Shown here piece after piece: positions 1-31,500 of a stretch of 64,000 bases of DNA. Both the position numbers and the translations under genes were made by a program. The notes under the pieces were generated by a model, which saw nothing but the letters and a program-made list of their open reading frames with translations, did no database searches and was not told the DNA's origin. How positions within the stretch are numbered: position 1 is the first letter of the stretch; each line of letters opens with the position of its first letter. This DNA comes from Candidatus Omnitrophota bacterium (GTDB taxonomy: Bacteria; Omnitrophota; Gorgyraeia; Gygaellales; Profunditerraquicolaceae), in the NCBI GenBank assembly GCA_022710715.1, contig JAKLGJ010000002.1, positions 309,453 to 373,452 of the forward strand. Direction: 5' to 3'.

Positions 1-1599
1 CTGCCGGTCCTGGCGGTCGTGCTCGGCGCAGTCAACCTTATTGCTTTGTTCCGGTATGGTCTGTTCGTGACCCACGCTTATACTATCCTGGTGGGTATCT
101 TCATCGCTTCCCGCGTGATCCCGGGTATGTTCTTCTACCGCATGCCGAAAGACAACGGGATCATGCCGACCATCTCGATGGTCATCCCTGCGTATAATGA
201 AGAAGAGTCCGCCGCCGAAACCATCGACCGGGCGCTGGCCACCGGGTATCCCATGGATAAAGTGGAAGTGATCGCGATCAACGACGGCTCCCAGGACAAA
301 ACCCTTGAGGCGATGCAGGAAGCCGCCGCGCGGCATCCTGCTAACGTCAGAGTGATCGATTTTAAGCAGAATCGCGGAAAAAGAGAAGGTTTGTATGCCG
401 GCGTCATGGCTGCCGGCGGAAATATTATTGTGGTGGTGGATTCCGATTCGTACCTGCAGCCGGGCAGTTTGTATCAGATCGTGCAGCCGTTCGCCGATCC
501 GGCGATACACGCGGTTTCCGGGCACACCGATGTGCATAACGCGGATACGAACCTGCTCACGCGCATGCAGCAGGTCTGGTACGACGTGATGTTCCGCGTC
601 TTCAAGGCGGGGGAGAGCGTGTTCGGCCTGGTTTCCTGCTGCCCGGGGTGTTTCTCCGCCTATCGCAGGGAAGCGTTGCTTAACGTGCTGGAGGATTTCC
701 GCAACCAGCAGTTTGCCGGCACGCGCTGCACCTACGGCGACGACCGCAGCTTGACCAATATGATCCTGCGCAATAACGGTAAAGTCATCTACCACAGCGG
801 CGCCCGGGCCACCACCATCGTCCCCGATAAATTCAACGTGTACCTGCGGCAGCAACTCCGCTGGAAACGTTCCTGGATCCGCGAATCGCTGACCGTGGCC
901 AGCCGGTTCATGTGGCGCAAGAACCCGGTGATCGGCTGGACGTTCTATATCGCCATCCTGGTGGCTTTTATCTCGCCGCTGGTGGTATTCTATCATGTAA
1001 TCTGGATGTCTATGATGTGCGGCGTTTCTATCTGGCTGTATGTGCTGGGCGTGACCATGGTGCCGGTAACCTGCTCGCTGTATTATCTTATCCGCCACCG
1101 GCACGATCCGCGGGGCAATAATTTCATTCACGGCTTGATGGCGATGTACCTGTACCTGGCGGTGCTGGGATCGCTTAATTACTACGCGTTCTCGACTCTG
1201 GTCAATACCACCTGGGGTACCCGCGCCGTGCAGGATGCCAAACCGTCGCTGCTGGGCTCGTTCAAAAAACGCCTGGCTGACCGGCGCGCGGCCCGGCTGT
1301 CCTCCGGCGCAGGCAGAACCGCGCATCCGGTACTCTCCAATGTAGTGATGTCCGGGTTTCTCATCGCTCCGGTGCTGGCTGCGGCGTTCTTTATTTTCCA
1401 GCATCCCGCAGCGATCCTGGGAGCGGACGTTTTGAACGCGGCGCAGTTCTTCGCTTTCACCAATACGTCCATTTCGGTTATCCTGCAAGTTTTCCTTCCG
1501 GCGATCGCGGCATTCATCGGCGCCTACTGGCTGGGTATTATCGGCGCCGTGATTTTTGTGGCCGGAATGTATTATATCTGGAAACGCGTTTCGCAGTAT
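1..1599 (+). other. Domain: GT2 processive beta-glycosyltransferase (hyaluronan synthase/NodC/chitin-synthase type) with flanking TM helices
   Basis: GT-A core begins at about 160 with IMPTISMVIPAYNEE. DGSQDKT, VVVDSDS, YGDDRSLTNM and the QQLRW motif (about 851-865) are the D,D,D,QxxRW signature of processive synthases. Hydrophobic helices lie before it (1-150) and after it (900-1600). Confidence 0.8.
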
Positions 1600-10500: not shown

Positions 10501-13500
10501 GATTTTCTCATCGAAGAAGGCGGGCGGTTCAGCACCAATAACCCGGAGCATCTCAAGAAGCTGGTAGCGTTCGTCCGCGCCGAATTGGAGCGCCAGAAGA
10601 TCGACGCCAATGCCTGGTCCCTGGATGAGCAGCGGCTGGAGAGCGACATACTCGGGAAACTTCCGCTGGAAATGCAGGATTTTGCCGACCAGCTACCCAA
10701 GTTGAACCGGCACATTATCAAACATGGCACGTTGCGCACCCTGGTTACCTACGCCAGCCTGCTGGAAGGCCGGCCGTCGGAAGCTGTTCTCGATGAGGAA
10801 GAGACGATCTTCAGCCGTATTCTGGGCGGGCAGCCGTTCAAAGATCCGGGATTCTGGCACGCTTTACGGCCGGAACATTTCCTCCGCCAACCCATAGAAT
10901 TCGTCATTGCGCAGAAGGATTATTTTGCGGAAGCGGGGAAAGAACGATTGCTCGATCAGATGGAGAGGAAAGTCGAACGCAACCGACTCACCGGGCAGAT
11001 CGTGATCATTCCGTATAAAGGCGGCAATCCGTTTGAGTTGCTGCTGGAGATCATGGAGAATTTTTACTGGCTGCGTTTCAATTCCGCAGTGATCAATCAT
11101 TTGAGGCAGAACGTTGCCGGGGAGTCGTTCGGCAAAGAATTGATCGACCGCTACATTATCAGAAGCTGCTGGCAGCATGCGGATATCTGGAGCTGCAAAA
11201 AAGTCCAGGGAGGCCTGATCGCCGAAAAAGTGCTGCAGTCGGTATCGCGGATGCAATTCAGGCTCTCGATGGATAAACGCGTAATACAATCCCTGTATAC
11301 CCAGCATGACCGGTCCTGGCGGCAATTCTTCTATCCGGTTGCTCACCCCAAACAGACCCAGCTGGTGTTTAAAGACGAGTTCGAGCGGTTGATGGAAGAT
11401 CCTAACCGGCAGGTGCAGGTCAAGCATGTGCGGTTGCTGGAGATCTGGCAGGTCCAGCAGGAAGTCCGCTTGTTCATGAAACAATTGAATAACTACTCGT
11501 TGATTCCGGTTCTGGACGAACGCATCGGGCTTCCTTTGAAAAGCATGGTGAGTTATCTTCTGGCGGAGAGATCGCTGCAGGATATTCTGGAGAAAATGGG
11601 GATAGTGGTTTCTTCAGATGACATCGATGCGCTGATCAAATCCATTATCGTAAAAAAGGCGGCAACCGGCAAGCTGCCGGATGATTTCTTCAAAGCGCTG
11701 GAAGATGTGGATTTGCGAAAGACGATACTGGAACTTCACGACGGCGGCAGCCGCCCGGCAAAGATCAACAGGGAATTGAGGAAGAAAGAGGCAGTCGCAT
11801 CTACCGTGGCAGGTGGCGCTGCCTCTTCCTCAATACCTGCGGTGCATTACGAAAAGACCGGGCGGGTGATCAAAGTATTCGCGCCCAGCGGGTCGCTGCT
11901 TGCCGTGCTGCGCGCTTTTGCCCTGACCGCGGGGCCGGAGGTGAACCTGCCGTTCACCCGGGGTATTTCCATGCGGGTGGCGCCGGTAGGATTACATCAC
12001 CGCGCTTCGGTACTGGAGAAGCTGATGCTGGTGTACAAAGATCACTATTGCCCGGGTGATAAATCCTTCGGCATACGCGAAAACGATATTGTTGCGGTCT
12101 TGTGGGAGAACGAATCGTTCGGCAGAGGACAAGCCTTGAATATGCGGGCGGTTCCGGTCTGGGAATTTGTGCGCACCGGTAAGGGCACAGAGGTCTGGTC
12201 CGAAGCGCTGCCCATGCTGTCCTCAAGAAAAGCGGATATGCGCACAATCATGGTGTTGCTGCTGTTGATACGCAAAGAGCAGGCCAAACTGTTCGATTCC
12301 TACCGGTTCAACGAGCAATTCCTGCAGAAGATCAAAGATGGCACGCGTTGGTCGGACTGGGGAGCGTTGAAGGTACGTAATGCGCAGGAGACAGCGTTAT
12401 TGTTGCATAAGCCGTTGTGGGAGGAATTCCACCGGTCATACTGGAGCATGAGCCGTGAATTGTCCGTCGGGCAGTGGCATGCCGATTCCCTGTTGCCCGA
12501 CGTGTTGTCCAGGCAGGCAGTGTTCGCGGATCTGGGGATGGAAGAGAAGCTGAAACAGGCGCTGGTTGAGCCGCGGCAAAGAGACTTGCTCGAAGCTGTT
12601 CCCGGCAAGAATGCGATCGGCCGCCGCGTGCGCCGGCATATCCGCAGCGCCGGTTTCGACCAGGTCCGCCTCGACGCGTTCAATCTGGACGGCGGCAAAC
12701 TGGTGATCGGCACAATGGACCAGATCAAACAGCAATTCGATCTGTCCGCAAACAAGGCGGTGGTTTACGACGCCGCCGGCGTGCTCTTCGATTGCGATAA
12801 GGAAAAAGTGGTCGATCATTTCCTGGCCATCATTGAGCAACGGATGAAAAAATACGTCGCCCGGCAGGCAGTGGACGAACTGTTCTTCAGCGGAGAAGAA
12901 GCGGGCCGTTTGAGATTAACCCTGCCCATGGAAGCATTTGTGCTTTGCCTCAATGAGGCTCTGCGGGCGAAGGGCTGGCCGGTATCTTTTACCCGGGAAG
13001 AAGTCGAGTATGGATTGACTCTGGGGCATACTCCGATTCCGCAGACCCAGGAGTTCAGCCGCCAGGCGCAGGAGCGGGGCATGGAGCAGTTTGTCCTTTC
13101 CAATCATTTCAAAAGCAAAGACGACCGTCTGCGCAAACAGTTCTACGTCATGGTCAAGCTGCATTATCCGCATATCCCCTCCGATCATATTATTGTTTCC
13201 GAAGAAATCGGTCTGGCCAAGCCGAGCGAAGCGATCTTTCGTCTATTGTTGAACCGTTTCGGGCTGTCTGCCGGCAGTACCCTGTTCATCGACGATCAAC
13301 AGCGCAACGCATTTGCGGCGTACCTGCTGGGCATGAACAGCTGCTGGTTCACTAAACAAACAGACAGTAAGCAGGTGGGCAAACATGGCCTGATCATGAA
13401 GCGCAAGGGCATGGATCTGTATGCTCCCCGGGAGCATCCGGAAGGGGAGGACGTCCTGGTGGATACCGTGCGTATCGCTGACGGTAAGACCGTGCCATTG

Positions 13501-16500
13501 CGAGCCGAATATCCGGCATCCGGGCAGATCGATGAAGCCAGCCAGATCTGGGATATCGAAACCAAACGCCTGCTCGATGTATTTATGCTCGATCTGTCTG
13601 CCCGCAAGCTCGCTCGTTACGCCCAGGGCAGGGAGATCCTTATGCGCAAGGTTTTTCTTGATAAAAATGGGCAGCTTATTCTGGGCGGCCGGCCGTGGGC
13701 TACTTTCTCCGGCGTTCCCGAGGCCGAAGTTGAAGTATACATGAAGAACGGGATCATCCGTAACGTGCTTTTTGTCGGATCCGGCACGCGGGTTGATTTT
13801 ATCCTGCTGCGGGACGCTGCCAGCAACAGGATCGTGGATTCCTACATCAACAAGCTTTTCGCGAAAAGAGCCCGCCGGTACAGACATTTTTACATCGAAT
13901 ATATTGAAACTGATTCCAAGGGCGGATTTTGCGCTTGCGGCCGGGAATACCAGTGGGTGTTCCCGGAACATCCCCGTTCCCGGCTGTCGGTAGAGGTGAA
14001 GCTGGGATTCAGGTATATTCCGGTTCCTGTTGCCGCACGTATTATCGGAGATAACAAACAGATCATTGCCACCCGCGAGCTCAATCTGCTCTGGGATATG
14101 CGGGACAGGTTGATCGGGTCGTTCTTCAAACGACTGGACCCGGCTGCGGTCGCGGCGCGGGAATTCATTATCGAGATGAAAAACGATATTCCGGAATGGG
14201 AACGGTTCAAGGTGAGCGCGTCCAGTTTCAAAGGCCGCAGATTCAAGGATTTGAAAGGGCAGCAATCGCGCGTGTTTGTCAAGGATCTGATCCCGCTGTT
14301 GATCCGGTTCGAGAAGGGAGTGACGTTCGCCTATGATCCGGAGAAGAATTTCCTGTCGCGGGCAAAAAATCAGGATCAGGCCGACCGTTTCCTCTATGCG
14401 CTGGCCTGGGAAGGTTTAACCCCGAACGAGCGGTTGATCTTAGCCCTTGCCGCATATCAAAAGAAAAAAGAATTCAACCTGAAAAGCCTCAAAGAGACCA
14501 ATCTCGGGTACGCATTGTTGAAGCAGGAAGGCAAGAATTCGCTCACCGAGCTCAAACGCATACTGGAAAGATATGAATGGGGTCTGTTGCTGCGGATTAA
14601 CAGTCATTATGTCCTCAAGGGGGGATTCAGGGATTTTATCCGAGAAAAGGAGTCAGTTGATCCGGCTGCCGAGGAGTTTTATTCCGCGCGCGATCTGCAG
14701 AAAGCCCTGCAGGAAGCAGTCAAGCAATCCGACCTTATTCAGCCTTCCCGCGAAGCAATCCGGGAAAAATTCCCCAATCTGGTCCGGGATTACGACGTGC
14801 TCAAGGCGGTCGGCAAGATCTCCTCCGGCTGGAATCAGTTCGTTATTCCCAGGAGCAAACGCGGCCAGGCCCGGGAAGAAGCGGGTAACGGTCAGGCGCA
14901 GGACGGCGGTAAGTCATTACTCGCAACCTGGGATACCATGCTTGATTCCGGGCTGGTCGGCCGGATCTTCGCTTTGCGTCTGCCTTTGCCCGGCCTCGAC
15001 AGGGCGCTGGCGGTGCGCGCTTTATTGCCGGCCGGGGCGGCAAAAGGACTGCAGGACATATTCTTCGAGGATGATCTGATCATCCTGGTTTACAAGATAC
15101 GCGGCCGGCTGCAGTTGTTCCGTATCGCCCCCTGCGATTTTACCGATTATCTGACCGATACCGCGAAAGTTCGCGTTTTTTACAAAGACGATTATAAAGT
15201 TGAAGTCATCGCGGATAATCAGGAGATCGAAGATATTCTTGCCGACCTGCGCTTATACCGGGCGTTCCCGGGATTGTATAATCTGGTATATGGTCTCAAC
15301 TCCGAAGATGTTCACGAGCAGTTGCGCGCCCTGCAAGCCATCAAGGGGCTCATGCGTAACAGCGCGGCTGCTCCGGAAGCGCAGCGGTTGCTTACCGCAT
15401 TGCTGGGCCATGAGAACCGTTATCTGCAGCTGCGGGCGCAGGAGATCCTTAACGCGGTGCACAGCGGACGTCCTGCTGCGTTCCCTGATTTCGAGCGCAT
15501 ACAGTTTGCGGCTCCCGGAGAAGCGATTTCGTTGCCGGAGACAGTCTTGAACGTGGGATTCAATCCTAACGCGCAAACAGTCGCTTTGCGCGGTTTCAAG
15601 GCCCGCCTGGCGATCAAAGACGCAGCATCGGAAAGGTTGCGCTATCGCAATTTAACCGCGACAGCGTATACCGAGAACAGCGTTACGCTCAAGGTCAAGC
15701 CTCACGCGCGCCATCTAAAAGTGTCTGCCGGGATGGCGCATATCGCGTTACAGATTAAACAGCCGGGCAGCCGGTCCTGGGAATTTGTCGATCATCCGAC
15801 AGCCAATCAGCTGGTCATTGTTCAGCCTGATCTGCGCGGCGCGATGATCTATCAGCTCTGGCCGGCGTACCTGGGGGTCTATGATGAGGACGGGCAGGTT
15901 CGCTATGACCATACCGGCAGGGCTATTCCCGGCACATTCAAGGACGCGCAAGACCTGCTGCCGGCGCTTAACGCGCAGGGGTACCGCTACATATATCTCA
16001 TGGGTATTTACCAGTTGGATAAACCCGAGAACATCATCGGACAGGTCGGGCCGGATGCTTCGTTATTCTCTCCGCTGTCATTCGCGGTCAGCCGGGAGTT
16101 GGGCGGCGAAGACGGCTTAAAAGCCCTGATCGATAAAGCCAGGGATGAATTCGGTATCGGGATTATCGTGGACTTGATCCCCCATGTGAACCAGAATTTC
16201 AACGATCTGCCGGAATGGGCCATAGTCAAAGCCAGAGGGTCCGCCGGCAGGGTTATTCGCAGGCTGGCCACCGACGGTTCGATCAACTTCGAGAATGGAT
16301 TACCGGTGGAATGGCATGATTCGGTGATGCTCAATTACCGGGATAACCGGGTGATTCAAGCGCAAGAACAATTACTGCGGCGCCTGGCGGCAATGGGAGT
16401 GCAGGGCGTGCGTATCGACGTAGCCCACAACTTCGGTTCCCTGCTGCCGGTCGACCCTTCTTTAAAGAGCAAGCAAAAGCTGTTCGGGCAGGTCACTTCC

Positions 16501-19500
16501 TGGCAGCGCAATGAACAGGGAGGTTTCAAGATCGTGAACAGCTGGGATGACGGGAAAGCCAATCCTTTCCTGGTCTATCTGGTCGCTGCCATAAGCGCTG
16601 ATTACCCGCACTTCGTCTTTATCGGAGAGAATTATGGAAAATATCTCCAGATCGTCAATTCCGGAGCCATCCCCATGGATTCCGGCACCCACGACGATAT
16701 GGAGAAAGTGATCTTAAAGGGCGGCTCTGCGGCGGATATACTCGGCGGGCATTTCCGCTGGCTGCTCGGCCGGCTTCCTGAAGGCGCGCAGGTCGCTTCG
16801 GCTCTGGAAACGCATGATTATTTCCGCCTGATGGACAGATGGCAAAGTTACGGTCCCGCGCGCATCAAAGCGCCGGTAATGACCTGGCTGGCAACTACCC
16901 GCGGGCCGCTCATGGTCTATAATCGCCAGGAGATCGGGGAGGTTCACCGCATCCGTATCGACAATTACACCAAACATAATTACCAGGAGGCCGACCGGCA
17001 GCGGTATTATGCCCAGCTTGAATTCGAGCGCATACACGGGGAGACCGTGCAGCAATTCTATCGGCGACTGTTTGATTTCTTCAGGTCCAATCCGCTTCTC
17101 TCCCGGGGAGAGAATTATATCCTTACGGTTTCTCCGGAGCAGGTATTCGCCATCGCCAGGTTTGATCAGGAGCAGGCCTTGATCGTGGTGGCGAATATGA
17201 GCTGGCAGACCGCGCTTGCCGAAATAGATCTTATGCCGCTATGGGAGAGAATGGGTCTGAAGGCATCACGGAATACATTCTACCAAATAAGCGATAGCGA
17301 AAGCGAAACACGGGAGATTTTCAGCGGCGAAGAACTTTTCGCGGACACAATCAAGGTCAGGCTGGAAGGATACCGGGCGACCGTGATCGGCTTGAGCGCG
17401 TATGCGCCGGATGGCGGCATCGAGCGCATTGCTTTCCGCGATGCTTTTGCGCGCTATACCCGGCAAGACCGTCCGGTGCGGATCAATGCCAATTTCGCTT
17501 TTGTTTCTCTGGAAGGAACCGTTCTTCGCAATGACCGCAGGTTATTCCATACGCTGTTCGTTCAACTGGCGCATGTAGTGGACGGCAACGATACATTGCC
17601 CGGACTGGTCGCGGGAGATCTTACCCTGCTGATGCATGAACTGCAGGCGAAGTATCCGCAGTTCAGCTGGAGGATCGAGTCGTACCTGGAAGCGCTGCGG
17701 GATGAGGGCGATGATGAAACTGTCCGGCGCGTCGCGGGAAAAGTTCTGCGCTGGGTGAAAGTGGGATCGGTAGTATTCGTTTCTCCGGAAGCTGCTCCGG
17801 TTTCCAAAGCCGGCGGCATGGCCAATGTGGTCGGCGAGCTGGCCGCGGAATTGGCTCAATCCGGCCTGAAGGTCTATGTGGTCAGTCCGTTGTACACCTA
17901 TGGCATAAGACCGCCGGGCTTGTATGAGAATATCAAAGAGGAGACGCGCAGGAAGTTCGATATTTCGTATACCGGCAAGACCATGCAGGTATATGCCGGA
18001 AGAAAAGGCATGGTTCCCGCAGGGTTGGCGCATGCGCAGATCAGCGGGGTCGAGTATTTATTGCTGGATCATCCGGAATTCGCGGATGCGTTGTACGGTT
18101 CTACCGACTCAAAAGAACATGAGCTTCTGCGTTCGATATTCCTCTCCTTCGGCAGCCTGGAAGCTTTGAAGGCCATGCACGTGTATCCGTCTTTGGTTAT
18201 CGGCAATGACTGGACCTGCGCGCCGCTGATGGCGCATCTGAATTCGGACAGGTCACTGTTCAAGCATGACCCGCATTTCAGCGCGGCCAGGACTATCGGC
18301 TGGGTGCATAATAACGGCCAGGATTACCAGTTCAAGGTCCCGCGTTTCGAGAACGGGCAGGACCTGCTCGGTAATCTCGGATTACCGGCTGAAGATTTCG
18401 GCTGGTTCACCGATCCGCATAACGGGAATCTGATCAATTTTACCGCGGCGTTCATCCGGCACGCGCAGTATGTGGTCGCGGTCAGCCCCGGGCAGATGCA
18501 GGATTATCTGCGTTCCGACGAAAAAGGCGGAGGAGAAGGGTTGAGTTTCATCTACCGGGAATTAATGGCTCAAGGCAGGTTATTCGCGGTCACTAACGGC
18601 GTGGCCCTGCGGGAGATCCAGCGCAGATGGTTCGGCCGGTCGATGTTCGATGTTTCCAACGAGCGTCAGCGGCGGGCATTTCTGGATCAGGCCAGGACGG
18701 TAAAAGAAGAATCGCGCGCGATCATCGCGGATACGGCGTTGTTCTGGCCGGCATCCAACGGGAAATCACCCTATTTCGGCCGGGAGCATATGGTGGTGAA
18801 CATGGTCTCGCGCATCACCGAGCAGAAAGGGATCAATTTTGTCGTTCCGTTTGTCCGTCGCGTGATCGAAAGCGGAATCTATCCTGACGTTGCTTTTGTA
18901 TTCGGCGGCAGCGGCGACCGTTTCTGGATGGATACATTGAACGAATTGGTATATGCCTTCCCGGGCAGAGTCGGGTATTCCAACGGTTTCCTCCCGGATC
19001 CGCATCCGCTTTCCATCTATCAGCGCACTTTTCTCGCCGGTGATCTGTTCATCGCTTTCTCGATATGGGAACCGGGAGGGATCTCTCCGATGGAGGCGTT
19101 GGCCTATGGCGTACCCTGCCTGGTCTCGGATAAACAAGGGCACAAATCAACCATAAAGACCATATCCATCCCGGGATTGAATCATCTTCTGGGCATTGAT
19201 GAGTCCGATCCGGGTTTTAACGGCGCGCGTACGCCGGTATATGAATGGGACGTTGATTACACCGTGGATATGATCATGCAGGCTTTTGACCGGATGTACC
19301 AACTGTGGAAAAATCGCGAGACAGACCCCGTATGGGGCCGGCTCGCGGAGAACGCGCTTTTCTCGGATAACAGCTGGGAGCGGTCGGTGAACGACGTGGA
19401 AATTCTCTTCAAGAATGCGCTGGATGGGGGAAAAGACCAGGAGTTGGCGCGGGCATTGGTCGGGTATAGTGCGCAGGAGCAGCCTGTCCGGACACAGCGC

Positions 19501-22500
19501 AATCCGGCATTCGCCTTTCTGGAAGAGCCAATCCTGAATCGCGATGCGTCCCGTTTTGCTTTGTCTTTTGAAGAACTGGTCGCGGCCATGCAAAGCGATC
19601 CGTCTTTATCCGCCGGAGACCTGACTTTGCTGACCCACGAGTTGTCTGTGAAACATCCCGAATCCGATACGGATATAGATCGTTTCCTGCAGATTGCGGC
19701 GCGCGATGCGCGCACTTCAGCGGGGCGCCTTGTTGCGGAGAAAACGCGACGCTGGTACCGTGTCGGTTCAGCCGCATTTGTTTCGCCGGAAGCCTACCCG
19801 ATCTCGTATGTGGGAGGCATGGCTCCCGCGGTGGGAGGGTTGAGCGCGGCTTTAGCCGACGACGGCCTGAAAATGTTCATCGTGACACCGACATATGATT
19901 ATCAGGTGAACGCCGCAGAGCGGATGATGCTCGATGTTCCGATTAATACGTTGGGCACGGTGCCCATGCAACTTCTCAAGCAGCGGTTCAACAGCGTGGA
20001 TTATCTGCTCCTGCATTACCCGATCTGGGACGGTATCCGTCAGAATGTGTTCGGCGGCTACCGCATTGACCAGACACCCGCGATCGGCGCTTTGAACGCG
20101 GTCGCTCTTTCTCTGGGCAGCCTGGAAGCGTTAAAGGCTGTTGGCGCGTATCCCTCGATCATGGCCGGCCACGACTGGATGGCCGCGCCGTTACTGGTGC
20201 ATCTGCGCTCTCCGTCGTCACCGTATAGCGCGGAAGATCATTTTGCCCGGGCCAGGACGATCGCCTGGGTACATAATACCGGAGCCGGGTATCAGTTTAA
20301 CGTGCCGCGGTCTTATGACGGAACAGATGTTTTGTCCTTCCTGGGGTTGCCCGAAACCGAACTTGCACCGTTCTATTCTCTTTGGGTCAAGCAGGAAGCA
20401 GCGATGCGCTACAGCAATTTTTTACTCGCCGCGATCCGCACCGCCGATTATGCGGTAGCAGTCAGCGATACCCAGATGCAGGATTACCTGAAATCCGATC
20501 TATTGGGAGAAGGCGACGGTTTTTCCTCTATCTTCCAGGAGCGAATGGCGCAGCGCCGGTTGTTTGCGGTGACCAACGGCATCGACCAGGCGCCGCTGCA
20601 GCGGCGCTGGTTCGGTAATTCTGCGCCGGGTCTATCTGCGATCGAGAAACAAGGATTCATGCGCGCGGCCACAGCCGCCAAACAGGCGGCTCGGCAGACA
20701 GTGGAGCAGGATAACTGGTTCTGGGCGCCGGATAATCTCGCGTTCTTCAGGGAGCTGGTTCCCTTACGGCATATCGACCGGGATTCTTTCGTCGTAGCCT
20801 CCATTTCGCGCATGACCGAACAGAAAGGTATACGGGAATTGGTCTCTTTCGCCGAAAGCGTGCTCGGGAATAGCGCTTATAAGAAAACGGTTTTCCTTTT
20901 TCTCGGGCATGGCGATAAGCAGTTGGAGTCTGAATTGCTTCGCCTTAGGGGGCGCTACCCGCGGCGCGTAGGGTATTACCGGGGATATTTCCCCGCTCCG
21001 GAAAGAGTGCGGGACAGCGTGTATCTTGCCGCTGATCTTTTTGTTTCTTTTGCGCTCTGGGAGCCCTGCGGTATCGCGGTAAAAGAAGCGCAGGCGGCCG
21101 GAGATGTGGCTTTAGTTTCCAATACCGGAGGACATAAAATGTCCGTCACCCCTGACGTGAATGGGGCCAGGTTCGATCTTTCCTACGGGTATCCGCCCAG
21201 GACTGTCGATAACGCTTTACGCCAGTTCGACCGTTTATATGTTCTGTGGAGAAAACGCGCCACTTCCGGAGAATGGAACAGCCTGGTAGAAAATGCTTTG
21301 TTCTCCGATAATAGCTGGAATGCGGCGGTGAAAGCTGCGCGCGCTTTGTTCAATTACGCGGTCACGGCTGATGAGGCGTATTACCGGAATTTCTATCCCC
21401 GCGGTCCCACTGCCGGCGACAGCCTTGACGGCGGTCAGCGTTTATCTTTCCAAATTCCTTTCCCCTTCCCCAATCTTTTCGATAACCAGCGCGGCTGGAA
21501 TGATCCTGAATGGCTCGAGGCGTATATTCTTACCTCCGCACTTCTCTCCCTGACTGATTCCATCGAAACACCTCTTACTGTTGCGGCGATCATCGATCAG
21601 GCTTCCCGGGTGTATGGCGATTACGGCCTGAATCTCGACCCGGCCAGGATCATTGTCCGGTTGGAGGGGTTGCGCCGAAGAGGGCTGGTGCGCAACAGCG
21701 ATAACAACTACAGCATCAAAGCGTCGGATAACGTGTATCTCAACGTCGATCCCCGGATGGCCGCTGTCTGGGCGGATGATTTCTATTATATCCAGCAGGA
21801 TATTGAACGCGCCGTGGCAGGCGGCCGTCAGGCGGTTTTTGCGGTCATTGACGCTTATGCCGCTGCGGTGGATCAATGGCCGAAGTATCCGGTGGAGGCG
21901 AAGTATCCGGTGCTGCGCGCGGTAGTCCAGCTGGATGCGCCGGCGCAGAAAAAACTTCTGGAATGGCTGCTAAGCCGCGGTCAGGCCGGCAGAACTGCCC
22001 TTGTAGATGCGATCGTACTGTTGATGGATTTTGAGCGGGGCAAACAGGGATGGCTTTCATTCCACGCGCCGCAGCTGGAAGGCCGCAGCATGTACCTGGT
22101 TGCCGCAGAGATATCCCTGCTTGCCGGCGGCTTGGGCCGGGTGATGCAATATCACGGAACCGCGATGTACCAACTGGGCGCGGATGTGGTGTATGTCGAA
22201 CCGTTCTATCCGATTACCAGGAATAAACAGGCTGACGTAGTGCCTCTGGATTACGCTGCGATCCCGCAGCCGCTTAAGGACATTAAGAGGCTGTCGCAGA
22301 AGTTCAATACTTTTGTGGGCGGAAATCCGGTCGCGTTCGACGTGTATACCGCGATCAATCCGCGCGGCATCCGGGTATACCTGATCAGGGATACTGCCGG
22401 CAGGTATGTAAATATACTCTACGAATACTCCACCGCGGATTCGCCCGCTTCCAATTTCGAGTTTACCGAATTTTTCACCAAAGCCACCCTGGAATTGATC

Positions 22501-25500
22501 CGGTATCTCGAGCTTCAGAAGAAAGAAGAAGCCCGGCGCAGCGGACAGGTGTATAAAGCGCCGCTGGTCGACGCCAACGACGGCCAGGTGTTGCCGATCA
22601 CCGCCTGGCGCAGGATCTTTTACGGAGAGCGTTCGGGGATAATGCGCGCCGGCAATACCGAGCAGCAGATCAACGATTCCTATGAAATATTCCGGGATGC
22701 GGTTTTTTGCGGCACCACCCATACCTATCGCAACCGGGTGATGATGGAGGATCTCAAGACATTCGGACTGCCTTTCCTGAAAGCGGCCGGCGTGCCTGAT
22801 CAGTGGTTGTGGTTATTCCTGCGGCAAGAGCTTAACGGCAGCAAACTCTGGGATTTTACCAGCGCAGGATTGCGCAGCGCCGATGTAGCTAAAGCGGTGA
22901 GCGCTATCCATGGCGCGGAAATGAATGCCCGCGATCCGGGAGTGGATTTGATCGGCATCACTAACGGCGATGACCGGCTCTATTCTGCGGAGTTCTTCCT
23001 GGAGGCTTTGCGTAAAGTGGGGTGCCGGGATTGCGCGCAGCCTTCTCCTGAAGAGGTGTCTGCGGCCAAGCAGGAAGCCAAGCGGTCGATCGGATTAAAT
23101 CCCAACCAGCTGGTCATTTCCTATTCGGGAAGGCTGGTGAGTGAAAAGGCGGGCAGGGATCGCGCGTTTACCGACGCCACCATCGAAACGCTGGTCGCCA
23201 ACGGTATGCAGGTAGTTATCTACGGCAATGTTCAGCCCTATGAGGCCAGTCAGCGTATCGGGATGCAACTCTCGATGCTCGAGCGCCGCCTTGCCCAGTC
23301 CGGATACAGCGGCACATTTATCTTCCGGCCTAAATTCGATATCAATGACCAGCGGCGGTTACTGGCGGCATCCGACATTCAGATCCAGGATTCCGACCGC
23401 TATACCGGCGCTTCCGAATATACCGAGGCGGATGTTTCGGCCAATGCCGGCTTGCAGATGGGGCCGCCGTTCTGGGAAGGTATTATCCAGCATCAGGGAG
23501 CAGTAGTGAATCGCAGGTTGCTCAAAGGCAACACTCTGGTTCCGGCCGGAGCGTCCCCGGGCGATTACCGCGACGTTCTGGTCTGGGTCAATGAACAGTT
23601 CAAGAACGGCACGCTTGGCATCTATCAGGCCCAATCCATCCGGTTCAGCGAAATACTCACCGCGTATCTGACCGCAGCCGAGTATCTGCGCTTCTGGAAC
23701 AATGCTTTTTATGGCCGGCAAGTTCCTGCGGCGCATCCCCGGATCCCCGGCGAGGTCTTTCAGGTCGAATCCATGACCATGACCTCTTACCTGGAAGAGG
23801 GAGAGTTGAGTCTGGAGCGGCAGGGAAATGATTTCTATCTGCGGGGTAAAGTCGACGAACTGCGCGAGAATCTCGAGTTCTCGGCGGTGATCAATCTGGA
23901 AACCCTGGATTCGGTTTATTATGAAACCGGCAAGCGCGGGGTGGTACCGTTCGAGATGATCAAGGCGCGGCTGGTAAATGAATATGGGGTGGCCGTGCCG
24001 CTGGCTATTAAGCGTTTGATCCAGAACCGGGCGGAATATTTCACCATCATTCCTCAAGATGTACCTTTCCCGTTCGAAGGGGTGTTAGAGATCACTTCCG
24101 GATTATGGACGGTTACCCAGCCGGTGCGCATTGTCGCTCAAGAAACCCATACCATGTGTCTTCTGCCGCAGCAGCCGGTTTCCGCTCAACACGAAGTGCG
24201 TTATTCCGAACTGATCGAGATGCTGCAGTCAGCGGCCAGCAGATTCTTCTATTTTGATCCGCAGCTGCGCGGTTGGACTTTGATCACGGGTTGTCCGCAT
24301 TTTGACCAGCGGCAGAACGCGTTCCTCTATAACTGGGGAAGAGATACCATGGTCGCTTTACCCATGACCGTACTCTGCGGCAGACCGGAGATGTTCAAAG
24401 CGGTGCTGGCCAATTACCTGCGTTTTGTACGAAACGGCCTGTTGCCGAATCTGATCGGCAATGGCAGCAATCCCCGCTATAACAGCGTTGATTCCACCCT
24501 GTGGATGTTCTGGGCGCTGCACAAATACCTGGACATTACCCGGGATTTTTCTATCCTGGATATTCCTGTCGTCAGAAGTCAGGGAGAGAGCGCAACCGTG
24601 CTGGAGATACTCGAAGAAGTGGTTCAGGCGTATATCGCCGGTATTCGCGGCGTGGATAGCTGGGAAGAGGATGGCAATAACAGGCAACAGCATATCGATA
24701 TTTTTATGGATCAAGATGGATTGATATTCGCCGGGAATAAAGATACCCAGTTGACCTGGATGGATGCCCAGCCTAAAGGCGGCTCTCCCGTGACCAGCCG
24801 GTACGGAAAAGCGGTTGAGATCAATGCCCTCTGGTTCAATGCTCTGCGTTTGATGGAACAGGCGTACACCCATAAAGAGCGGGAAGCCGAACGGGCCGCG
24901 ATGCAGGAGCTTAAAGAGCAGGTGCGGGCGAATTTTACTAAATTCTGGAACGAGGAGAATAGCTGTCTTTTCGATACCATTGAAGGCGACCCGGCTGCCG
25001 GAAAGAAGATCCGTCCCAACCAGGTCTTTGCCATTTCTCTGGGGTTGCTGGATGAAGTCAAAGCCGGGCAGGCGCTGGATGTGGTGAGAAAAGAGTTACT
25101 CACGCCGTACGGCTTGCGCACCCTCAATATCACCGATCCGGATTATCATCCGGTGCACGCAAATGAATTATCCTACCACCAGGGCACCGTCTGGCCGTGG
25201 TTGATGGGCGCATTTATCGAAGCGGGTATACGGGTGTATGGCCGGGAAGAGACCGCGCATCTTCTGGCGGAATACCGGTATTTCAGCACTGTACATGATC
25301 TGCTTACCCATGGCCAGGATCATTCCATTCCGGAGATTTACGACAGTAATTGCGAAGCGGCTTTGGGCTGGAATGCCAAAGGTTGTTACGCTCAAGCCTG
25401 GAGCGTGGCGGAAACCCTGCGCGGCCTGGCGCTTTTGTTCCCGGGAGTATTCATTACGGGCTATGCCGGCGAAGAGAGCAAGAGCGGCTTGATCTATGAA

Positions 25501-28500
25501 ATGGTTATCCGGGATTATTACGCGCGAGACAGCGCAGTTGCCGGGCTGCAGGCGGCATTGGCGGAGCTGCCGTATCTTTCCCGAATCGGCGTGGAGCATA
25601 TCGTGCTTATCGGTTTGATGCAGCATACCGGCAGTCCGTATGAAGTGCTTGATCCTCGCCGGATCGACGAGCGCGCCGGCACTCCGGCTGATCTGGAACG
25701 GTTTGTCCGATCCGCGCATCAACTCGGGATCAAGGTGTTGATCGATTGGCTGGCTAATCAGCATGTCGCCAAGACCAGCCCGCTGGTCCAGGAATTTCCG
25801 GAGCGCTTCCTGTATACCACTGCCAGCGACGGCAATTATTTCAGCGAAGAGCGTCTTGCGCTGGTCAGGGGCAGCGATCTGCCCCGCGATGAGCTGATCA
25901 GTTTGATACAGACAGGCAAAGCCTTAAACGCTCACATCCAGGCCGCGGGCATGCCCCTTGATGGAATCGTCGATCTTGGCGGCCGCCGGATAAAAGTTAT
26001 GCCGGCGCGTCGCGATCTGCGGGAAGTCATCGGTTACCGTAATGCCGATAAGGAATTCATCGCTCCCGAAGCAGCTCTTTTTCCCGTATCGGCGACCGAT
26101 GAAGTGCCTTTACGCTGTTTCCCCAGAAGATGGGGCTCGTTAGCTCAACCCGATCTTTCTTATCTTGAGACGAGAGCCGCGGCTATAGCTATCGGCGCCT
26201 TCTGGCTGGATAAGGGTATCGATGGATTCCGTATTGACGCCGCGCTTTCCACTTTTCCGGATAAAATACAGGAGAATTGGGGGCTGGAGGTAGCGGAGAA
26301 CCTGTCCCGCGATTTCATACTGGCAATGCGCGAGATCGTTCCGGAGGCGTTCATCCTCTTTGAGGGTTTTGAGCGGCATTCCGAATTGCTGGAGATCGCC
26401 GACCGCAGATATACCGGTGTTTACAACTGGAAGCCGCGCAATCTGGTTACGGAAGCATTGACGGATCGCACCAGGCTGGCAGCGCTGGGCGGGTATATCC
26501 TGGAGCTCGAGGGTATGCCGCAGCATATCCAGACGCATGAAGTCAGCCTCGGTCCGGAACATGACGCGTATGATTTCGGCGACGCCTGGGCCCGGCTGGA
26601 CGCTGCTTCCAAGCAACTGATGTATTTTCTCTATCAGGTGCTGCCCGGTTACCTGCTTGTTTTCAACGGCCAGGTTTTCGGCAGGGATCACCTCTATAAG
26701 GGAGTGTACGAGCTGTCCGCGGAAGTCCCCCGGTTCGAGACTATTCCCGCGCAGGAGCTGGCTTCCTGGGAACAGCTCTTCTCGCTGCGCAAGCGGTATC
26801 CGGCGCTGGTCAGAGGAGAGTATCTGGCGCTTTCCGATAAGAACGCGGATGTTTTTGTCGTGGCCAGATTCGATGAAAAAGAGATCGTTCTGGGGTTGCT
26901 TAATCTTACCGCGGAAAACAGATCCGCGGAAATTTCTCTTGAATCGGTGATCGCGCTGCAGGCTACCGGACCGGCCGGAGAGATGTCTTACCGCGTGTCC
27001 ATGGAAACCATGGGGAGGGAGAACAGCGAGAGCATGATCTTCTCATCGAAGTTCAGCCTTACCGTGCCGGCCAGGTCCGCCATGATCATTCGTTTCGAAC
27101 CTGTCCCGCAACCGGAGGGAGTTCCCGACGGCGGCGCGGAATTCCGTCCGGTTAAAGTGGGCGTGATCGGCGCCGGATATATGGGATTGATTACCGCGGT
27201 GTGCCTGGCCGACATGGGGCATACTGTTGTATGCATGGATATCGACAAGGAAAAAATCGGTCAACTGAATAAAAAGACCGCGTATTTCTATGAGCCCGGC
27301 CTGGATGATCTGCTCGGGAAGAACATGGAAACGGGCGCCATCAGATTTACCACTGACATGGCGGATACGGTTCGGTCCAGCGAGATGCTTTTGTTATGTA
27401 TCAATACTCCGGTCAAGGATGACGACAGGATGGATTATGCATATATTGAATCGGCAGCCCGGGATGCTGCGCGGTTTATCCGGGAGCCGAAGACCATTGT
27501 TGTCCGCTCTACCTGCACGGGCGGAGCAACCAGACGCCTGCAGGAGCTCATGAATACATTGACGGATGCGAAGCTCACCATGGTTTTTAACCCCGAGTTC
27601 TTAAGCGAAGGGACCGCGATAAGGAATTTGATGGAGCCGGACCGTATCGTCGTAGGCGTGGAGGATGAACCAGGTCGCCGGGCAATGGAAGAATTGTACG
27701 CGCCGCTTATCGATCGGCGAATCCCGTTCATCGTTACCAGCATTCCCAGCGCGGAAGTGATAAAATTGACGTCCAACCTGTATCTTACCGCCAAAATCTC
27801 TACCATCAATGCGATTGCCAGGCTGTGCGAAGAGACGGGAGCGGATATTACCGAGGTTTCCCGGGCCGTAGGGCTCGACAGGCGCATAGGCGTGGCATTC
27901 TTGAATGCGGGCCTTCCCGCGGGAGGGTCGTGTCTGCCTAAAGATCTGCGCGCCATGGTGCAGATGGCGCAAGATTCAGGATGTGAGTTCAAGATCGGCG
28001 CAGCTATACGCGACTCGAGGGCACAGGAAATCGAGCGATTCATCGAACGAATCGTCAAATTTAACGGAGGCTTGTCCGGGAAAACCGTAGGTGTGCTGGG
28101 CGCGGCGTTCAAACCGCATACCGACGATATCAGGGGATCCGTGGGCGTGGATATTCTGAAAGTCCTGTCCGCCATGGATGTAACCGTCAAAGTGTATGAT
28201 CCTCAAGCGATGCCGAATCTTAAACAGCTGAATCTTCCGTTGAATTACGGTGCCAACGTGTATGATGTGGCCAGGGATAGCGACGCGCTTATTATCATTA
28301 CCAACTGGCCTGAATTCGGGAAGCTCGATCTGCAATTGCTGCGGAGCAAGATGACCAGGCCGGTGATCATAGACGGGTGGAATATGTATGATCTGCCGAC
28401 GATGGAACAGGCAGGCTTCACCTATATTTCCATCGGGAGGCCTGCGGTCATTCAGCCGCAGGCGGACGCTCGAAGAACGGAAGACCTGTTTTCGGACATC

Positions 28501-31500
28501 GTATGCATGCGTGGCGGGAATCTGGATGTCAATGGCACGCTTGCGTCGGCGAAGGGGAAAATCGACCTTGGAACATGGGTAGATATCGCAGGCTTCAGCC
28601 TGATGCGCGGCGTCCCGATGACGGATTCGTTATCCGCTTTGATGCGGTCGGGCATAGTGCTTCTGGATGCGTTTGACCAGCTTCCTCTTGCAAAGCGTCT
28701 TACTTTCTTAAAAGGTCTTACAGCGCTTGCCCGGCAATATCCGCAGGAACTCGAAGAGCTTCTGGCGCGGCTGAACGTACGATTGATCGATATCATTGAG
28801 AAAACGATGACATATCCACGGTCATATCCCCAGGCATTGCCTGAATTATACGAGGCATTGTATCAGGCGGGGTTGGATAACCCGAGGGGGTATCTACCCC
28901 GGGGCATTCCTGCCGGGATAAAAGTGCGCGCCGGACAGGTTTTGGTTGTCGGTGCAGGCAAAATGGGCACAATGAGCGGCGCTTTGATCGGCCGGATCAT
29001 TGCGGCATTGGGAGATGATTTCACTTTTCTGGGGGTAGTAGAGCCTCGGGAAGAGAATATCAGATCATTCACAACGCATTATCTGAAGAAGAACCCGGGC
29101 GCATCCTTGCCGTCATTTTTTGGCTCGATAGCCGAGTTCAAGGCCGCCTCTTCGTTCGATCCCGCGAAAACCGCAGTATATATCGCAACGCCCGACAACA
29201 CCCATTGTGCCGTTCTCAAGGAATTGGCCGCACTGGGAATTACCAGATTCATCCTGGAGAAACCCATAGCCGGTTCACAGGAAGATATCGATGCGATCAT
29301 CCGGCTGCGCGACGAAAAAGGCCTGCATATCGTTATCGATGAACAATTCTTGTATGCCCTGCCCATGCTGCAGGTTAAGGAATATTTGAAAAGGACAGCC
29401 CGCATACCGCTGATGGTCACTCAACTCGGCATAAAAGACCGGACAGCGGATTCGGCCAGCGGAAGAAATATCGAGACCGCCAACATTTTTTATTATGATC
29501 CTTTCCACGCCATATCTATGGCTAATGATCTTCTGGGCTCCGGAGCGGCCGAGGCGGTATTCATGACCGATATGGTCCTGGATGACCGCATCATCGCTTC
29601 CCACGGCTCGGGAGTGGCCATCATGACGCATGAGAAAGGAACGCAGAAAGCCACGGGTGTCATTGCGATGGAACACGAACGGCCGGGAAAGAATACGTTC
29701 GACAGGATACTGAACATTTACAGCAGGGATAGCGATTCGGCTGATTTGAATCTGGTTACCGTCAGCTTCGGTTTTGCGCGGTACTTATTCACCCATCTTG
29801 AGATTGTTGATCAGCACGGAAACGTATTGCAGACCAAAATCGACCAGGATGAAACGCTGACCCTTTCGCTGTATCATTGCCTCATCGGTTTATGGAGCGG
29901 CGCAAAGGTCGTTTCGGAAATAGATGCCATCCTTCTTACCCACGATGTTTTAAGCCAGACGGATTATTTGGCGAATACAGCCAGGCCTTCGGCAGGCTCC
30001 GTGCAGATGGCGGCTATTCATAACCGTGACGCCATGGACTATTTCGAAGATACCGTTTCAGGCATGGCGAAAGGGTATCGGTTCAGGACCGGCCAGGTAA
30101 ACGGCAATATGGAATTAGGCCAGCTGCAGGCCGTCGAGTTCCTCTGGGTAGTGCGCGGCGCGGCGAAAGCCGCTTGTAACGGGCGAGAAGCCATTCTGAC
30201 TGCCGGGGACCAGTTGACAGTGCGGCCCGGCGATCGCGTAGAATTGAGAGGAAGTTTTGATTACGCGCTGGTCGTTTTGTCGGAAACGGGCGCCCGGGCA
30301 TGGGAGACAGCCGTCACTTTCCTGAAAGACGTCCCCGATATCTCCGGCGGATGCAACATAGACCGGAAAAAGCCTTTTCGCAGGACACTCCTGGATGCCG
30401 TAGGAATCAACGGTAGCGACGGTATAAGAGCGCATGTGGTAAAGATTAACAAAGCTACGTCACATCCGCACGCGCATCCCTATTATGGAGCAGGCATATC
30501 TCAAATGGAGTTGTACGTTGTCCTTGATCCTGTCGAATTAGGCATGGCGCCGGAGTATAACCACGGCACTATCGATCTGCTGATCCCATCGTATGCCGGC
30601 GACGACGCAACATACAGATTGTTTAAAGTCGAGACTCAACCCGGAACAGCTATCGTGTTTCCCCCGGGCATCGGCCATCAGGCGGACGGGGTATACGCAT
30701 TGGTGCTCGCGCTCTTGCCCGGGAGCGTTGCGGAAGAGGCGATCGATCTTACTTCCGAGTTTGACGGCGGCGCGGCTCTCGGAGCGCCGCAGCCGGAATC
30801 ACCGTTTCATGTTGTGCACGTTTCTTATCAGGACCCCGAGCATATCGCTGGCGGCCAGGGTGAAGCGGTTCTCAATATCATCCGGGCCCAGGCAGACCTT
30901 GGATACTCGACGACCTGGATATCGCCGTGTGTTAATGACGAAATACCGGGGGAATATCTTTACAGCAATTATAATCTGCAATTGGTGAAGATCAGGATCC
31001 GGGATGACCCGGTAGCGACATTCTTCGATAGCACTGAAGAAACACAGGGTTGCCGCGAAAAATTCGGCAGTTTGTTCGTCGATTACATACAAGAACGATA
31101 CGACCCTTCCCAGGCCTATATTCATCTTCACGGATTTATTGAAGAACCCCGCCGCGCCGCGGCATTACGCAGTCTCGGTTTTAACGTTACTTCTACATTC
31201 CATATGTTTTTGTCGCCGCGCATGGATACGACCAGTGACCATAACGCGTTTTATCCGGAGCTCAAGCGTATCGAATATGAAGCGATAACCGCGAATTCCA
31301 AAGTTATTGTGAATAGCAACGCGATGCGGGAGGAATTGCTGGCGCTGGCAGGCGATTATGCGGGGGATGTGCATATGGTTCCCAACGGTGTCGGGGAAGA
31401 ATATTTCGTTTTATCCGACACTGAAAAGGATGCAGTTCCGCTGGTGACCACCTACGGCAGGATTTCACCCGAAAAGGGGTTCGATACATTTATCGAAGCA

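Follow-up and report, generated by a model that had tools for sequence, protein, structure and literature searches.

A conserved cassette of putative alpha-glucan enzyme modules within a giant multi-enzyme reading frame of an Omnitrophota bacterium

Introduction

The giant genes of Omnitrophota, whose carriers are tiny and possibly predatory bacteria, are among the longest genes known, and published ideas on their function mainly concern prey adhesion and cell-wall digestion. The present study deals with a stretch of 64,000 nucleotides from a Candidatus Omnitrophota bacterium (positions 309,453 to 373,452 of contig JAKLGJ010000002.1), called the window in the following, the forward strand of which is taken up by one giant open reading frame (ORF). 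Our subject is a cassette of six modules in this ORF, all of which are related to enzymes of alpha-glucan synthesis or degradation and which are found in the same order in giant ORFs of other genomes. We describe the modules and their residues, the relatives of the cassette and its likely position relative to the membrane, and then weigh what the cassette may do for the cell.

Results

A six-module cassette in a giant reading frame

Frame +1 of the window is free of stops from nucleotide (nt) 1 to 63999, that is over 21,333 codons, whereas about 859 stops would be expected from the base composition (log10 P about -381), and the remaining five frames contain 208-993 stops each. GC contents at the first, second and third codon positions (GC1, GC2 and GC3; about 0.60, 0.41 and 0.66) are uniform along the whole window. 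The ORF is open at both window ends, hence the gene is longer than 64 kb and its protein has at least 21,333 amino acids (aa), and Pfam scans over the entire 64-kb translation recognise upwards of 25 different domains in it, either enzymes or repeats. One may suspect that a misassembly, a chimeric contig or a pseudogenised operon has been taken for one ORF. Apart from a general unease over a gene of more than 64 kb, nothing specific was found in favour of such an artefact. Its probability is negligible in view of the missing stops, the uniform codon-position composition, the in-frame occurrence of the modules in 15 independent loci from different samples (seven from GTDB genomes and eight from metagenomes), and the giant ORFs that complete long-read genomes also report; nine of these loci, of the giant type and 6-23 kb long, are stop-free from end to end.

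The six modules occupy nt 15481-27102 (aa 5161-9034), about 18% of the visible ORF, and follow one another in one frame: a first GH13 module (GH13#1), two GT5 modules (GT5#1 and GT5#2), a GT-B module intermediate between GT5 and GT35 (module 3), a GDE_C module and a second GH13 module (GH13#2). This co-linear arrangement had been described in an earlier note on the same DNA, and both the Pfam matches and the stop-free frame +1 bear it out; the motifs quoted there (AGGLGRV, WGRDTM and RYNSVDSTLW) are likewise present in the translation. What the earlier note did not include is the wider context, namely an ORF of at least 21,333 aa which also holds GT2, GH9, UDP-glucose dehydrogenase, radical S-adenosylmethionine (SAM), pyruvate phosphate dikinase (PPDK)-like, methyltransferase and HEAT modules.

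Front of the cassette: pre-domain, GH13#1 and the GT5 pair

All parts of the cassette lie on the + strand. It is introduced by a conserved pre-domain (14908..15732, aa 4970-5244), composed of a small beta, a helical and a beta-sandwich part according to the AlphaFold2 (AF2) secondary structure, for which no NCBIfam match was obtained and no family could be assigned. The pre-domain precedes GH13#1 in all relatives, and the conserved block begins at about aa 4943-5020 in window numbering. Further upstream, a HAD-family phosphatase module (12754..13317, + strand, aa 4252-4439, PF00702) is co-conserved in several relatives, and the relative P0001 aligns continuously over aa 4230-6474; the best NCBIfam match of the HAD module, glucose-1-phosphatase NF006991 (E 9e-10), stays far below threshold with 38.5 bits against a cut-off of 295.

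GH13#1 (15733..17430, aa 5245-5810) is a divergent module of the alpha-amylase family. PF00128 matches it near aa 5443-5655, just over threshold, its family profile matches GH13 structures only in the PDB, and the (beta/alpha)8 catalytic fold was recovered. The nucleophile D5473 (GVRIDVAHN), the acid/base E5543 (FIGENYG) and the pair H5605-D5606 (ETHDY) are kept in all 16 aligned homologues. The family is rare, with 63 representatives at E <= 1e-3 among 1.84 billion proteins, which are mostly longer than 1,000 aa, the remainder being short fragments.

The two GT5 modules, GT5#1 (17431..19425, aa 5811-6475) and its tandem paralogue GT5#2 (19426..21393, aa 6476-7131), are 40% identical in self-BLAST, and each starts with a helical leader of about 110 aa that is included in these coordinates. 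PF08323 Glyco_transf_5 (204.6 bits) and PF00534 (77.3 bits) match this part of the protein in two stretches each, above the gathering scores, and both modules align with GBSS, SSI and E. coli glycogen synthase. GT5#1 keeps K5936 (SKAGGM), NDW, H6103 (VHN), R6271 and K6276 (SRITEQKG) and E6357...E6365 (WEPGGISPME); the functional residues of E. coli GlgA, with its K-x-G-G-L loop and E-x7-E / EPxG motif, we take to be K15, R300, K305 and E377. Apart from the KxGG lysine, GT5#2 keeps its motifs as well (HDW, VHN, SRMTEQKG and WEPCGIAVKE), and a second GT5 copy also occurs in the loci L001 and L013. Both modules fail the NCBIfam equivalog cut-off for GlgA, TIGR02095 (127-128 bits vs 328), and judging from these scores they are GlgA-like modules, not GlgA equivalogs.

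Module 3, a GT-B module between GT5 and GT35

Module 3 (21394..24135, aa 7132-8045) had been called GT35-like and phosphorylase-like. The GT35-like motifs are indeed there, whereas a PF00343 match and the lysine that binds pyridoxal phosphate (PLP) are not, and the label is refined here to a GT-B module intermediate between GT5 and GT35. Its motifs comprise AGGLGRV, TTHTYRNR, GITNGD, SGRLVSEKAGR and DSDRYTGASEYTEADVSAN. The structure prediction (pLDDT 90.7, pTM 0.91) begins with a helical domain, continues with a GT-B core and ends in a beta-sandwich. Pfam gives no PF00343 match and a weak PF08323 match (E 3.9e-8, aa 7367-7504), and hhalign links the N-half to the GT5 modules with 96.8%. As a single sequence the module matches nothing among the PDB sequences; its family profile matches GT35 phosphorylases only, weakly (E 0.025) and at the PLP motif. 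Where the GT35 reference motif reads E-A-S-G-T-S-N-M-K, an invariant D7811 (YTEADVSAN) takes the position of the PLP lysine and G7803 that of the conserved Glu, both in the alignment with the GT35 phosphorylases and in that with gene B (see below). Because of these two substitutions, module 3 cannot, as far as aligned residues tell, be a canonical PLP-dependent phosphorylase; with its GT35-like motifs and what appears to be a GT5-like overall fold it is a GT-B module in between the two families.

The same module also stands alone, in proteins of 981-1,563 aa lying in ordinary gene neighbourhoods. In the shortest of these, P0011 (981 aa), residues 72-960 match aa 7149-8045 of the window ORF. 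No glycogen genes are among the neighbours of P0011 and of a second such homologue, P0012, and their additional N- or C-terminal extensions contain no Pfam domain.

Rear of the cassette: GDE_C and GH13#2

The GDE_C module (24136..25470, aa 8046-8490) is matched by PF06202 over aa 8086-8474 with 298 bits against a cut-off of 21 (E 9.5e-89). It aligns with positions 275-567 only of TIGR01561, being without the archaeal-type N-terminal domain, and it also aligns with the glycogen debranching enzymes (GDE) of human and Candida glabrata (hsGDE and CgGDE). Its residues D8115 (WGRD), D8255 (TWMD) and E8445 (IPEI), kept in five of five GDE_C homologues, correspond to CgGDE D1078, D1241 and E1492, and mutation of these or of the hsGDE equivalents D1261 and E1502 abolishes the glucosidase activity (PMC4837477, PMC12219210). 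The module thus belongs, by its profile match and its aligned residues, to the GH133 family of amylo-alpha-1,6-glucosidases.

GH13#2 (25471..27102, aa 8491-9034) follows with essentially no linker. PF00128 matches from aa 8520 (E 6.5e-12), and a search matches 153 GH13 sequences of the PDB. The four canonical regions I-IV, namely DWLANQH, the nucleophile D8746 (GFRIDAALS), E8788 (LFEGFE) and H8854-D8855 (PEHDAY), are kept in all relatives, and the nearest neighbours in sequence are of the oligo-1,6-glucosidase and TreS types.

Catalytic modules or scaffolds

The earlier note had asked for a check of catalytic residues and had raised the thought that the domains could be repurposed for binding. 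Four of the six modules keep their sets, and for these (GH13#1, GH13#2, GT5#1 and GDE_C) repurposing is unlikely; GT5#2 without its KxGG lysine and module 3 without its PLP lysine have lost residues. In its general form the alternative says that the cassette is made of degenerate enzyme folds serving glucan binding or structural spacing. It draws on the Tyr in GT5#2 and the Ser in the second GT5 copy of L001 at the KxGG lysine, on the Asp and Gly at the PLP-lysine and Glu positions of module 3, and on the curated family cut-offs, which are all missed. Non-catalytic starch-synthase-like proteins (SS5) exist in plants and count on the same side. However, the catalytic sets of GH13#1 (16/16 homologues), GH13#2, GT5#1 and GDE_C are invariant despite a divergence of 40-60%, being kept across relatives at 41-63% identity. 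Moreover, the highest identity of the whole cassette in a five-sequence alignment (0.90 in the 60-aa bin aa 7790-7849) falls on a motif of active-site type in the C-terminal part of module 3. A purely non-catalytic cassette is therefore regarded as very unlikely.

Conservation of the cassette and its two-gene counterpart

The strong database relatives of the cassette are all incomplete sequences of giant proteins, and they bear the label Omnitrophota or Omnitrophica, apart from a few records labelled Planctomycetales or Deltaproteobacteria. The block of pre-domain, GH13#1 and GT5 is present, at 47-58% identity, in every locus found with the GH13#1 query. The full collinear order is kept at least in L003/P0001 (212-kb contig), L011 (897-kb contig) and L013 (86-kb contig), and L001 is collinear as far as its contig extends; cassette identity in these four is 49-63%, and GT5 is present in one or two copies among the collinear relatives. 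In the five-sequence alignment, identity lies at 0.6-0.9 within the enzyme cores, drops to 0.25-0.45 where modules join and is about 0.2 directly after aa 9034. Beyond that point the neighbours vary among genomes, so the UDP-glucose dehydrogenase downstream lies outside the conserved cassette. Since identity collapses after aa 9034, where the neighbours differ, the cassette is taken as a conserved unit.

A two-gene version of the cassette is found at L016 618-11136 and also in L012 and L017, in which the complete genes A (1,859 aa) and B (1,541 aa) are separated by a 316-nt spacer. Gene A encodes the pre-domain, a GH13#1-like module and a single GT5, with only about 24% identity to the window. 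Gene B encodes a GT35-like domain, GDE_C and GH13; its catalytic motifs are nearly identical to those of the window, and its GDE_C and GH13 modules are 48-52% identical to GDE_C and GH13#2. The N-domain of gene B shows textbook GT35 motifs (GGLGIYFGD, YTNHTVVPAG and EACGTS), with Arg at the PLP-lysine position and the Glu kept, and module 3 aligns with it over 430 columns (97.9% probability, E 6e-13). The gene-B family (P0091-P0117) comprises about 30 clusters with full-length coverage and 66-100% identity. It is labelled 'glycogen debranching enzyme/glucan phosphorylase/glycosidase' by JGI, one NCBI member is labelled 'Planctomycetes bacterium', and some relatives of the gene-B domain carry precomputed PF00343 matches. 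On this comparison, the cassette appears to unite in one frame two multidomain genes that other bacteria keep apart.

In other lineages the glycogen-degrading modules seem to form another, more canonical set, because P0010 (3,504 aa) and P0006 (2,198 aa, the same sequence as L002) have a GH77 4-alpha-glucanotransferase directly upstream of GDE_C and P0010 carries a genuine PF00343 phosphorylase match. The pairing of GH77 with GDE_C fits the debranching logic of a transferase plus a glucosidase.

Module-3-like genes of about 1,500 aa were also observed in L091 (1-20554) and L092 (1-12692), in same-strand arrays of multi-enzyme genes of 1,250-2,800 aa. One gene in these arrays has 1,872+ aa and contains phosphoglycerate kinase (PGK), others have 1,552 and 1,484 aa, and a further one of 2,805+ aa contains radical SAM and methyltransferase domains; the arrays may be either forerunners of giant ORFs or giant ORFs that have been split. 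As a whole, the relatives look like a series that begins with separate genes, passes through multidomain genes and ends in giant ORFs.

The pattern of conservation also bears on the proposition that the giant product is a polyprotein, cut at the module junctions (for instance by C39-like peptidase domains of other giants) into free enzymes of ordinary size, with fusion serving co-expression only. It would agree with this that the junctions are the least conserved parts, that every module has its counterpart in a full-length stand-alone protein or a protein half (as module 3 has in P0011), that peptidase domains are reported in Archaeovorins, the enzyme-rich giants discussed below, and that multi-enzyme genes of 1,250-2,800 aa occur in arrays on one strand. 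However, the Pfam scans detected no peptidase domain in the window, no motif common to the junctions was observed, several of them are very short, and gene B (1,541 aa) likewise contains GDE_C and GH13#2 as one fused pair. We hold processing of this kind to be rather unlikely; as regards chemistry it is compatible with the explanation preferred below, an active alpha-glucan unit.

Membrane topology and compartment

A Kyte-Doolittle hydropathy scan for transmembrane (TM) helices places helix clusters at aa 3-831, 3240-3334 (borderline to about 3420), 16866-17032 and 20953-21004. The helix pair aa 3240-3258 and 3316-3334 (9718..10002, + strand) is the last convincing anchor upstream of the cassette, and the next one downstream is a cluster of about four helices at aa 16866-17032 (50596..51096, + strand). 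No convincing TM helix was found by hydropathy in the stretch of about 13,400 aa between aa 3420 and 16866, in which a few peaks correspond to charged beta-strand or Rossmann cores. This TM-free stretch holds the cassette together with UDP-glucose dehydrogenase, radical SAM, PPDK-like, SAM methyltransferase, uridine-kinase and cytidylyltransferase modules. The downstream UDP-glucose dehydrogenase exceeds its curated threshold (TIGR03026, 402.9 bits vs a cut-off of 189.8). The cassette is thus shown to share its compartment with modules that require NAD+, SAM, ATP or phosphoenolpyruvate (PEP), and reduced Fe-S clusters. Because of this shared TM-free stretch with cofactor-dependent enzymes, the cassette is most likely cytoplasmic, on a polypeptide that is tethered to the membrane. 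Helices were also counted outward from the GT2 synthase-like domain in order to fix the absolute topology, an attempt that was abandoned since several helices are borderline.

These data have to be confronted with the published hypothesis for Archaeovorins and for the giant protein of V. archaeovorus, which comprises the degradation of cell-wall or surface polysaccharide and an extracellular position of HEAT and sugar-enzyme regions. Applied to the cassette, it would mean that surface-exposed GH13 and GDE_C modules digest prey polysaccharide or released glycogen while GT5-type modules bind or trim glycans. The GH9 module and the membrane-embedded GT2 synthase-like module of the window would suit such a role, and a 147-kAA 'multi-enzyme' giant is predicted to have a signal peptide and TM helices (bioRxiv 10.64898/2026.06.07.730766). 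However, the cassette lies in one TM-free stretch with enzymes in need of NAD+, SAM, ATP/PEP and Fe-S, the relatives with two genes are ORFs of an ordinary kind that bear the annotation of debranching enzymes, and the donor-binding residues K5936, R6271/K6276 and E6357 of GT5#1 are kept, which is sensible only where NDP-sugars exist. West-Roberts et al. add the caution that overlooked TM helices may lie behind the extracellular assignment of glycolytic domains (bioRxiv 10.1101/2023.11.21.568195). An extracellular, prey-directed function of the cassette thus seems improbable.

A separate observation concerns the HEAT repeats of the window, which begin at about aa 15376 (nt 46126-51096 region). 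They share the TM-free stretch, in conflict with the extracellular-only placement published for HEAT repeats.

Further content of the giant ORF

Along the rest of the ORF (1..63999, + strand), the Pfam scans and hydropathy place a GT2/chitin-synthase-like domain among about 10 hydrophobic helices at aa 1-831 (nt 1-2493), an arrangement that suggests a processive membrane polysaccharide synthase of the chitin- or cellulose-synthase-like kind fused into the giant. It is followed in the Pfam scan by GH9 (aa 1526-1902) and a first UDP-glucose dehydrogenase (aa 2157-2634). The second UDP-glucose dehydrogenase (27151..28404, + strand, aa 9052-9464; PF03721, PF00984 and PF03720) adjoins the cassette on its 3' side. 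Further downstream come GFO/IDH/MocA and GT4 (about aa 9650-10650), radical SAM and PPDK_N with a PEP-utilizer domain (about aa 11800-13000), GDSL, methyltransferase, GGACT and uridine-kinase-like domains (about aa 13450-14330), a cytidylyltransferase, HEAT repeats and GNAT (about aa 14980-17700), and a methyltransferase, PHP, HEAT repeats and two more methyltransferases (about aa 17900-20900).

Three unannotated copies of about 335 aa, which are 46-66% mutually identical and have no Pfam match, flank the radical SAM module on both sides (33298-34311, 34378-35376 and 36469-37464; aa 11100-11437, 11460-11792 and 12157-12488). At nt 37522-38871 (aa 12508-12957), a PPDK_N ATP-grasp domain and a PEP-utilizer mobile domain were recognised and the PEP/pyruvate-binding TIM barrel was not detected by Pfam; from this domain content the segment is predicted to be a truncated PPDK/PEP-synthase-like or phosphotransferase module.

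The minus strand has ORFs as long as 610 aa (for example 55003-56835, 2053-3678 and 46528-47808), which were rejected as genes and regarded as shadow ORFs that result from the GC3 richness of the coding strand, frame -2 having just 208 stops. In-frame ATG or GTG codons preceded by a Shine-Dalgarno-like motif are rare, with 21 in 21,333 codons, and none of them marks a module boundary.

Discussion

A membrane-tethered alpha-glucan unit as the preferred reading

In our view the cassette is probably an alpha-glucan unit that is active in catalysis and is held at the membrane, on its cytoplasmic side, within a giant gene of the Archaeovorin or 'multi-enzyme metabolic' type; its specific activities are all ones that we infer. 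The pre-domain, GH13#1 and the GlgA-like GT5 synthase, duplicated here, would form an anabolic half, and the GT35-derived GT-B module, the GDE_C amylo-1,6-glucosidase and GH13#2 a catabolic or remodelling half. GT5#1 may elongate an alpha-1,4-glucan from NDP-glucose, and GH13#1 may remodel or branch it. GH13#2 and GDE_C could act in indirect debranching, in which a transfer step comes first and the alpha-1,6 stub is then hydrolysed, like the two halves of the eukaryotic GDE. GT5#2 and module 3 would be variant transferases or glucan-binding or regulatory modules, because residues for donor or cofactor binding are lost in them. The distant helix clusters would anchor the polypeptide in the inner membrane and keep the cassette on the cytoplasmic face. 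Such a fusion would enforce a 1:1 stoichiometry and co-localisation of the modules, while a glg operon only co-transcribes them.

Several points weigh against this reading. Region I of GH13#1 is atypical, reading DLIPHVNQN against the canonical D-x-x-x-N-H with the His one position early (the same form is kept in 15/15 homologues covering the region), and GH13#1 cannot be placed in a GH13 subfamily. GT5#2 has Y6603 where the KxGG lysine is expected, and the PLP-lysine and Glu sites of module 3 are substituted as described. The NCBIfam scores of the cassette modules are all far below the curated cut-offs, and no NDP-glucose pyrophosphorylase (GlgC) was detected within the 64-kb window. The absolute topology is not fixed, for the N-terminus lies beyond the window and the helix count at aa 3240-3420 is ambiguous. 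Finally, the HEAT repeats (exclusively) and some sugar enzymes of Archaeovorins were predicted to be extracellular (West-Roberts et al., bioRxiv 10.1101/2023.11.21.568195).

Regarding what the earlier note had made of the locus, the phrase of a complete toolkit is overstated, as neither GlgC nor a proven or assignable branching enzyme nor a PLP-competent phosphorylase was found. Its suggestion of a self-contained alpha-glucan remodelling machine appears reasonable in so far as a five-module block is conserved as a unit amid shuffled flanks. That the fusion is unusual holds true only relative to model bacteria; on the other hand, glg genes are adjacent in operons as well, fused GT5 and sugar enzymes are a published hallmark of the giant proteins of Omnitrophota, and a two-gene version exists elsewhere.

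A bolder picture is possible, though we give it only tentatively. According to it, the cassette would be an autonomous, membrane-tethered 'glycogen assembly line' that carries its anabolic and its catabolic half on a single polypeptide. Module 3, its most conserved element, and the Arg-variant domain of gene B would make up a new GT35-derived clade without the PLP lysine. Members of this clade would either catalyse a new reaction, as a glucan phosphorylase or transferase that does not depend on PLP, or take a new regulatory part in the sensing of glucan. Operons whose genes became joined codon to codon would then be the origin of giant ORFs, and the two-gene loci and the split-giant arrays would be intermediates on this path.

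Returning to the active, membrane-tethered alpha-glucan unit that we prefer, GT5-rich giant proteins of Omnitrophota and in-frame fused sugar enzymes are already known, whereas three details are new, namely the conservation of the cassette, its counterpart in two genes, and a family that lies between GT35 and GT5 and lacks the PLP lysine. A large share of one giant gene turns out to be ordinary-looking central sugar metabolism, with intact catalytic residues, a conserved order and an unfused two-gene counterpart. The compartment of the cassette must supply NAD+, SAM, ATP and NDP-sugars, and the likely role of this class of giant protein thereby shifts toward a membrane-tethered cytoplasmic metabolon. 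What is more, the cassette supplies defined modules for synthase, debranching and phosphorylase-like assays and draws attention to an uncharacterised family related to GT35 and GT5.

Comparison with known systems

The nearest known type is the Archaeovorin, the enzyme-rich giant named by West-Roberts et al. 2023, with the 39,678-aa protein of Ca. Velamenicoccus archaeovorus as its type; in Archaeovorins the GT5 'glycogen synthase' is the second most common domain (bioRxiv 10.1101/2023.11.21.568195); a later preprint defined 'multi-enzyme metabolic' giants with a PF08323/PF00534 sugar module (bioRxiv 10.64898/2026.06.07.730766). Archaeovorins resemble the window ORF in being a huge single ORF with scattered TM clusters and closest relatives in Omnitrophota, and in the fusion of GT5, GT1, glycoside hydrolases, methyltransferases, PPDK-like, HEAT, radical SAM, HAD and GNAT domains. 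With its size, glycosyl transferases, methyltransferases, glycosyl hydrolases, HEAT repeats, TM helices and Omnitrophota origin the window ORF fits this type. The SecA-like DEAD helicase, NUDIX and peptidase domains of Archaeovorins were not seen by Pfam in the 64-kb window, which is incomplete at both ends, and against the full length above 30,000 aa of an Archaeovorin the visible part of the ORF measures 21,333 aa. Some regions of Archaeovorins are predicted to be extracellular, whereas the data on the window cassette favour the cytoplasm. Neither giant-protein preprint mentions GH13/PF00128, amylase, GDE_C/PF06202, debranching, a conserved module order or the conservation of catalytic residues.

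The two-gene locus shares the domain order of the cassette and near-identical catalytic motifs in GDE_C and GH13#2. It differs in having separate genes, one GT5 copy and a gene A of only about 24% identity, and its GT-B domain has YTNHTV, EACGTS and Arg at the PLP-lysine site where module 3 has TTHTY, with Gly at the Glu site and Asp at the PLP-lysine site.

The bacterial glg operon consists of glgB, glgX, glgC, glgA and glgP, so that genes for synthesis and degradation lie side by side. Like the cassette, it co-expresses synthesis with degradation and contains a GlgA-type GT5 synthase. However, it is made of separate genes and debranches with the GH13 enzyme GlgX, whereas the cassette is one polypeptide and has GDE_C for this step; the cassette also lacks GlgC, an assignable GlgB and a GlgP competent for PLP, and it misses the NCBIfam equivalog cut-offs for GlgA and GlgB.

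The eukaryotic AGL/GDE combines a GH13 4-alpha-glucanotransferase with a GH133 amylo-alpha-1,6-glucosidase. Its order is the reverse of that in the cassette, where GDE_C comes before GH13, the overall identity is low, and GH13#2, at most a candidate 4-alpha-glucanotransferase, has its sequence neighbours among the oligo-1,6-glucosidase and TreS types. Nevertheless, in the eukaryotic enzyme as in the cassette, GH13 and GDE_C are carried on one polypeptide, and the catalytic residues of GDE_C are equivalent.

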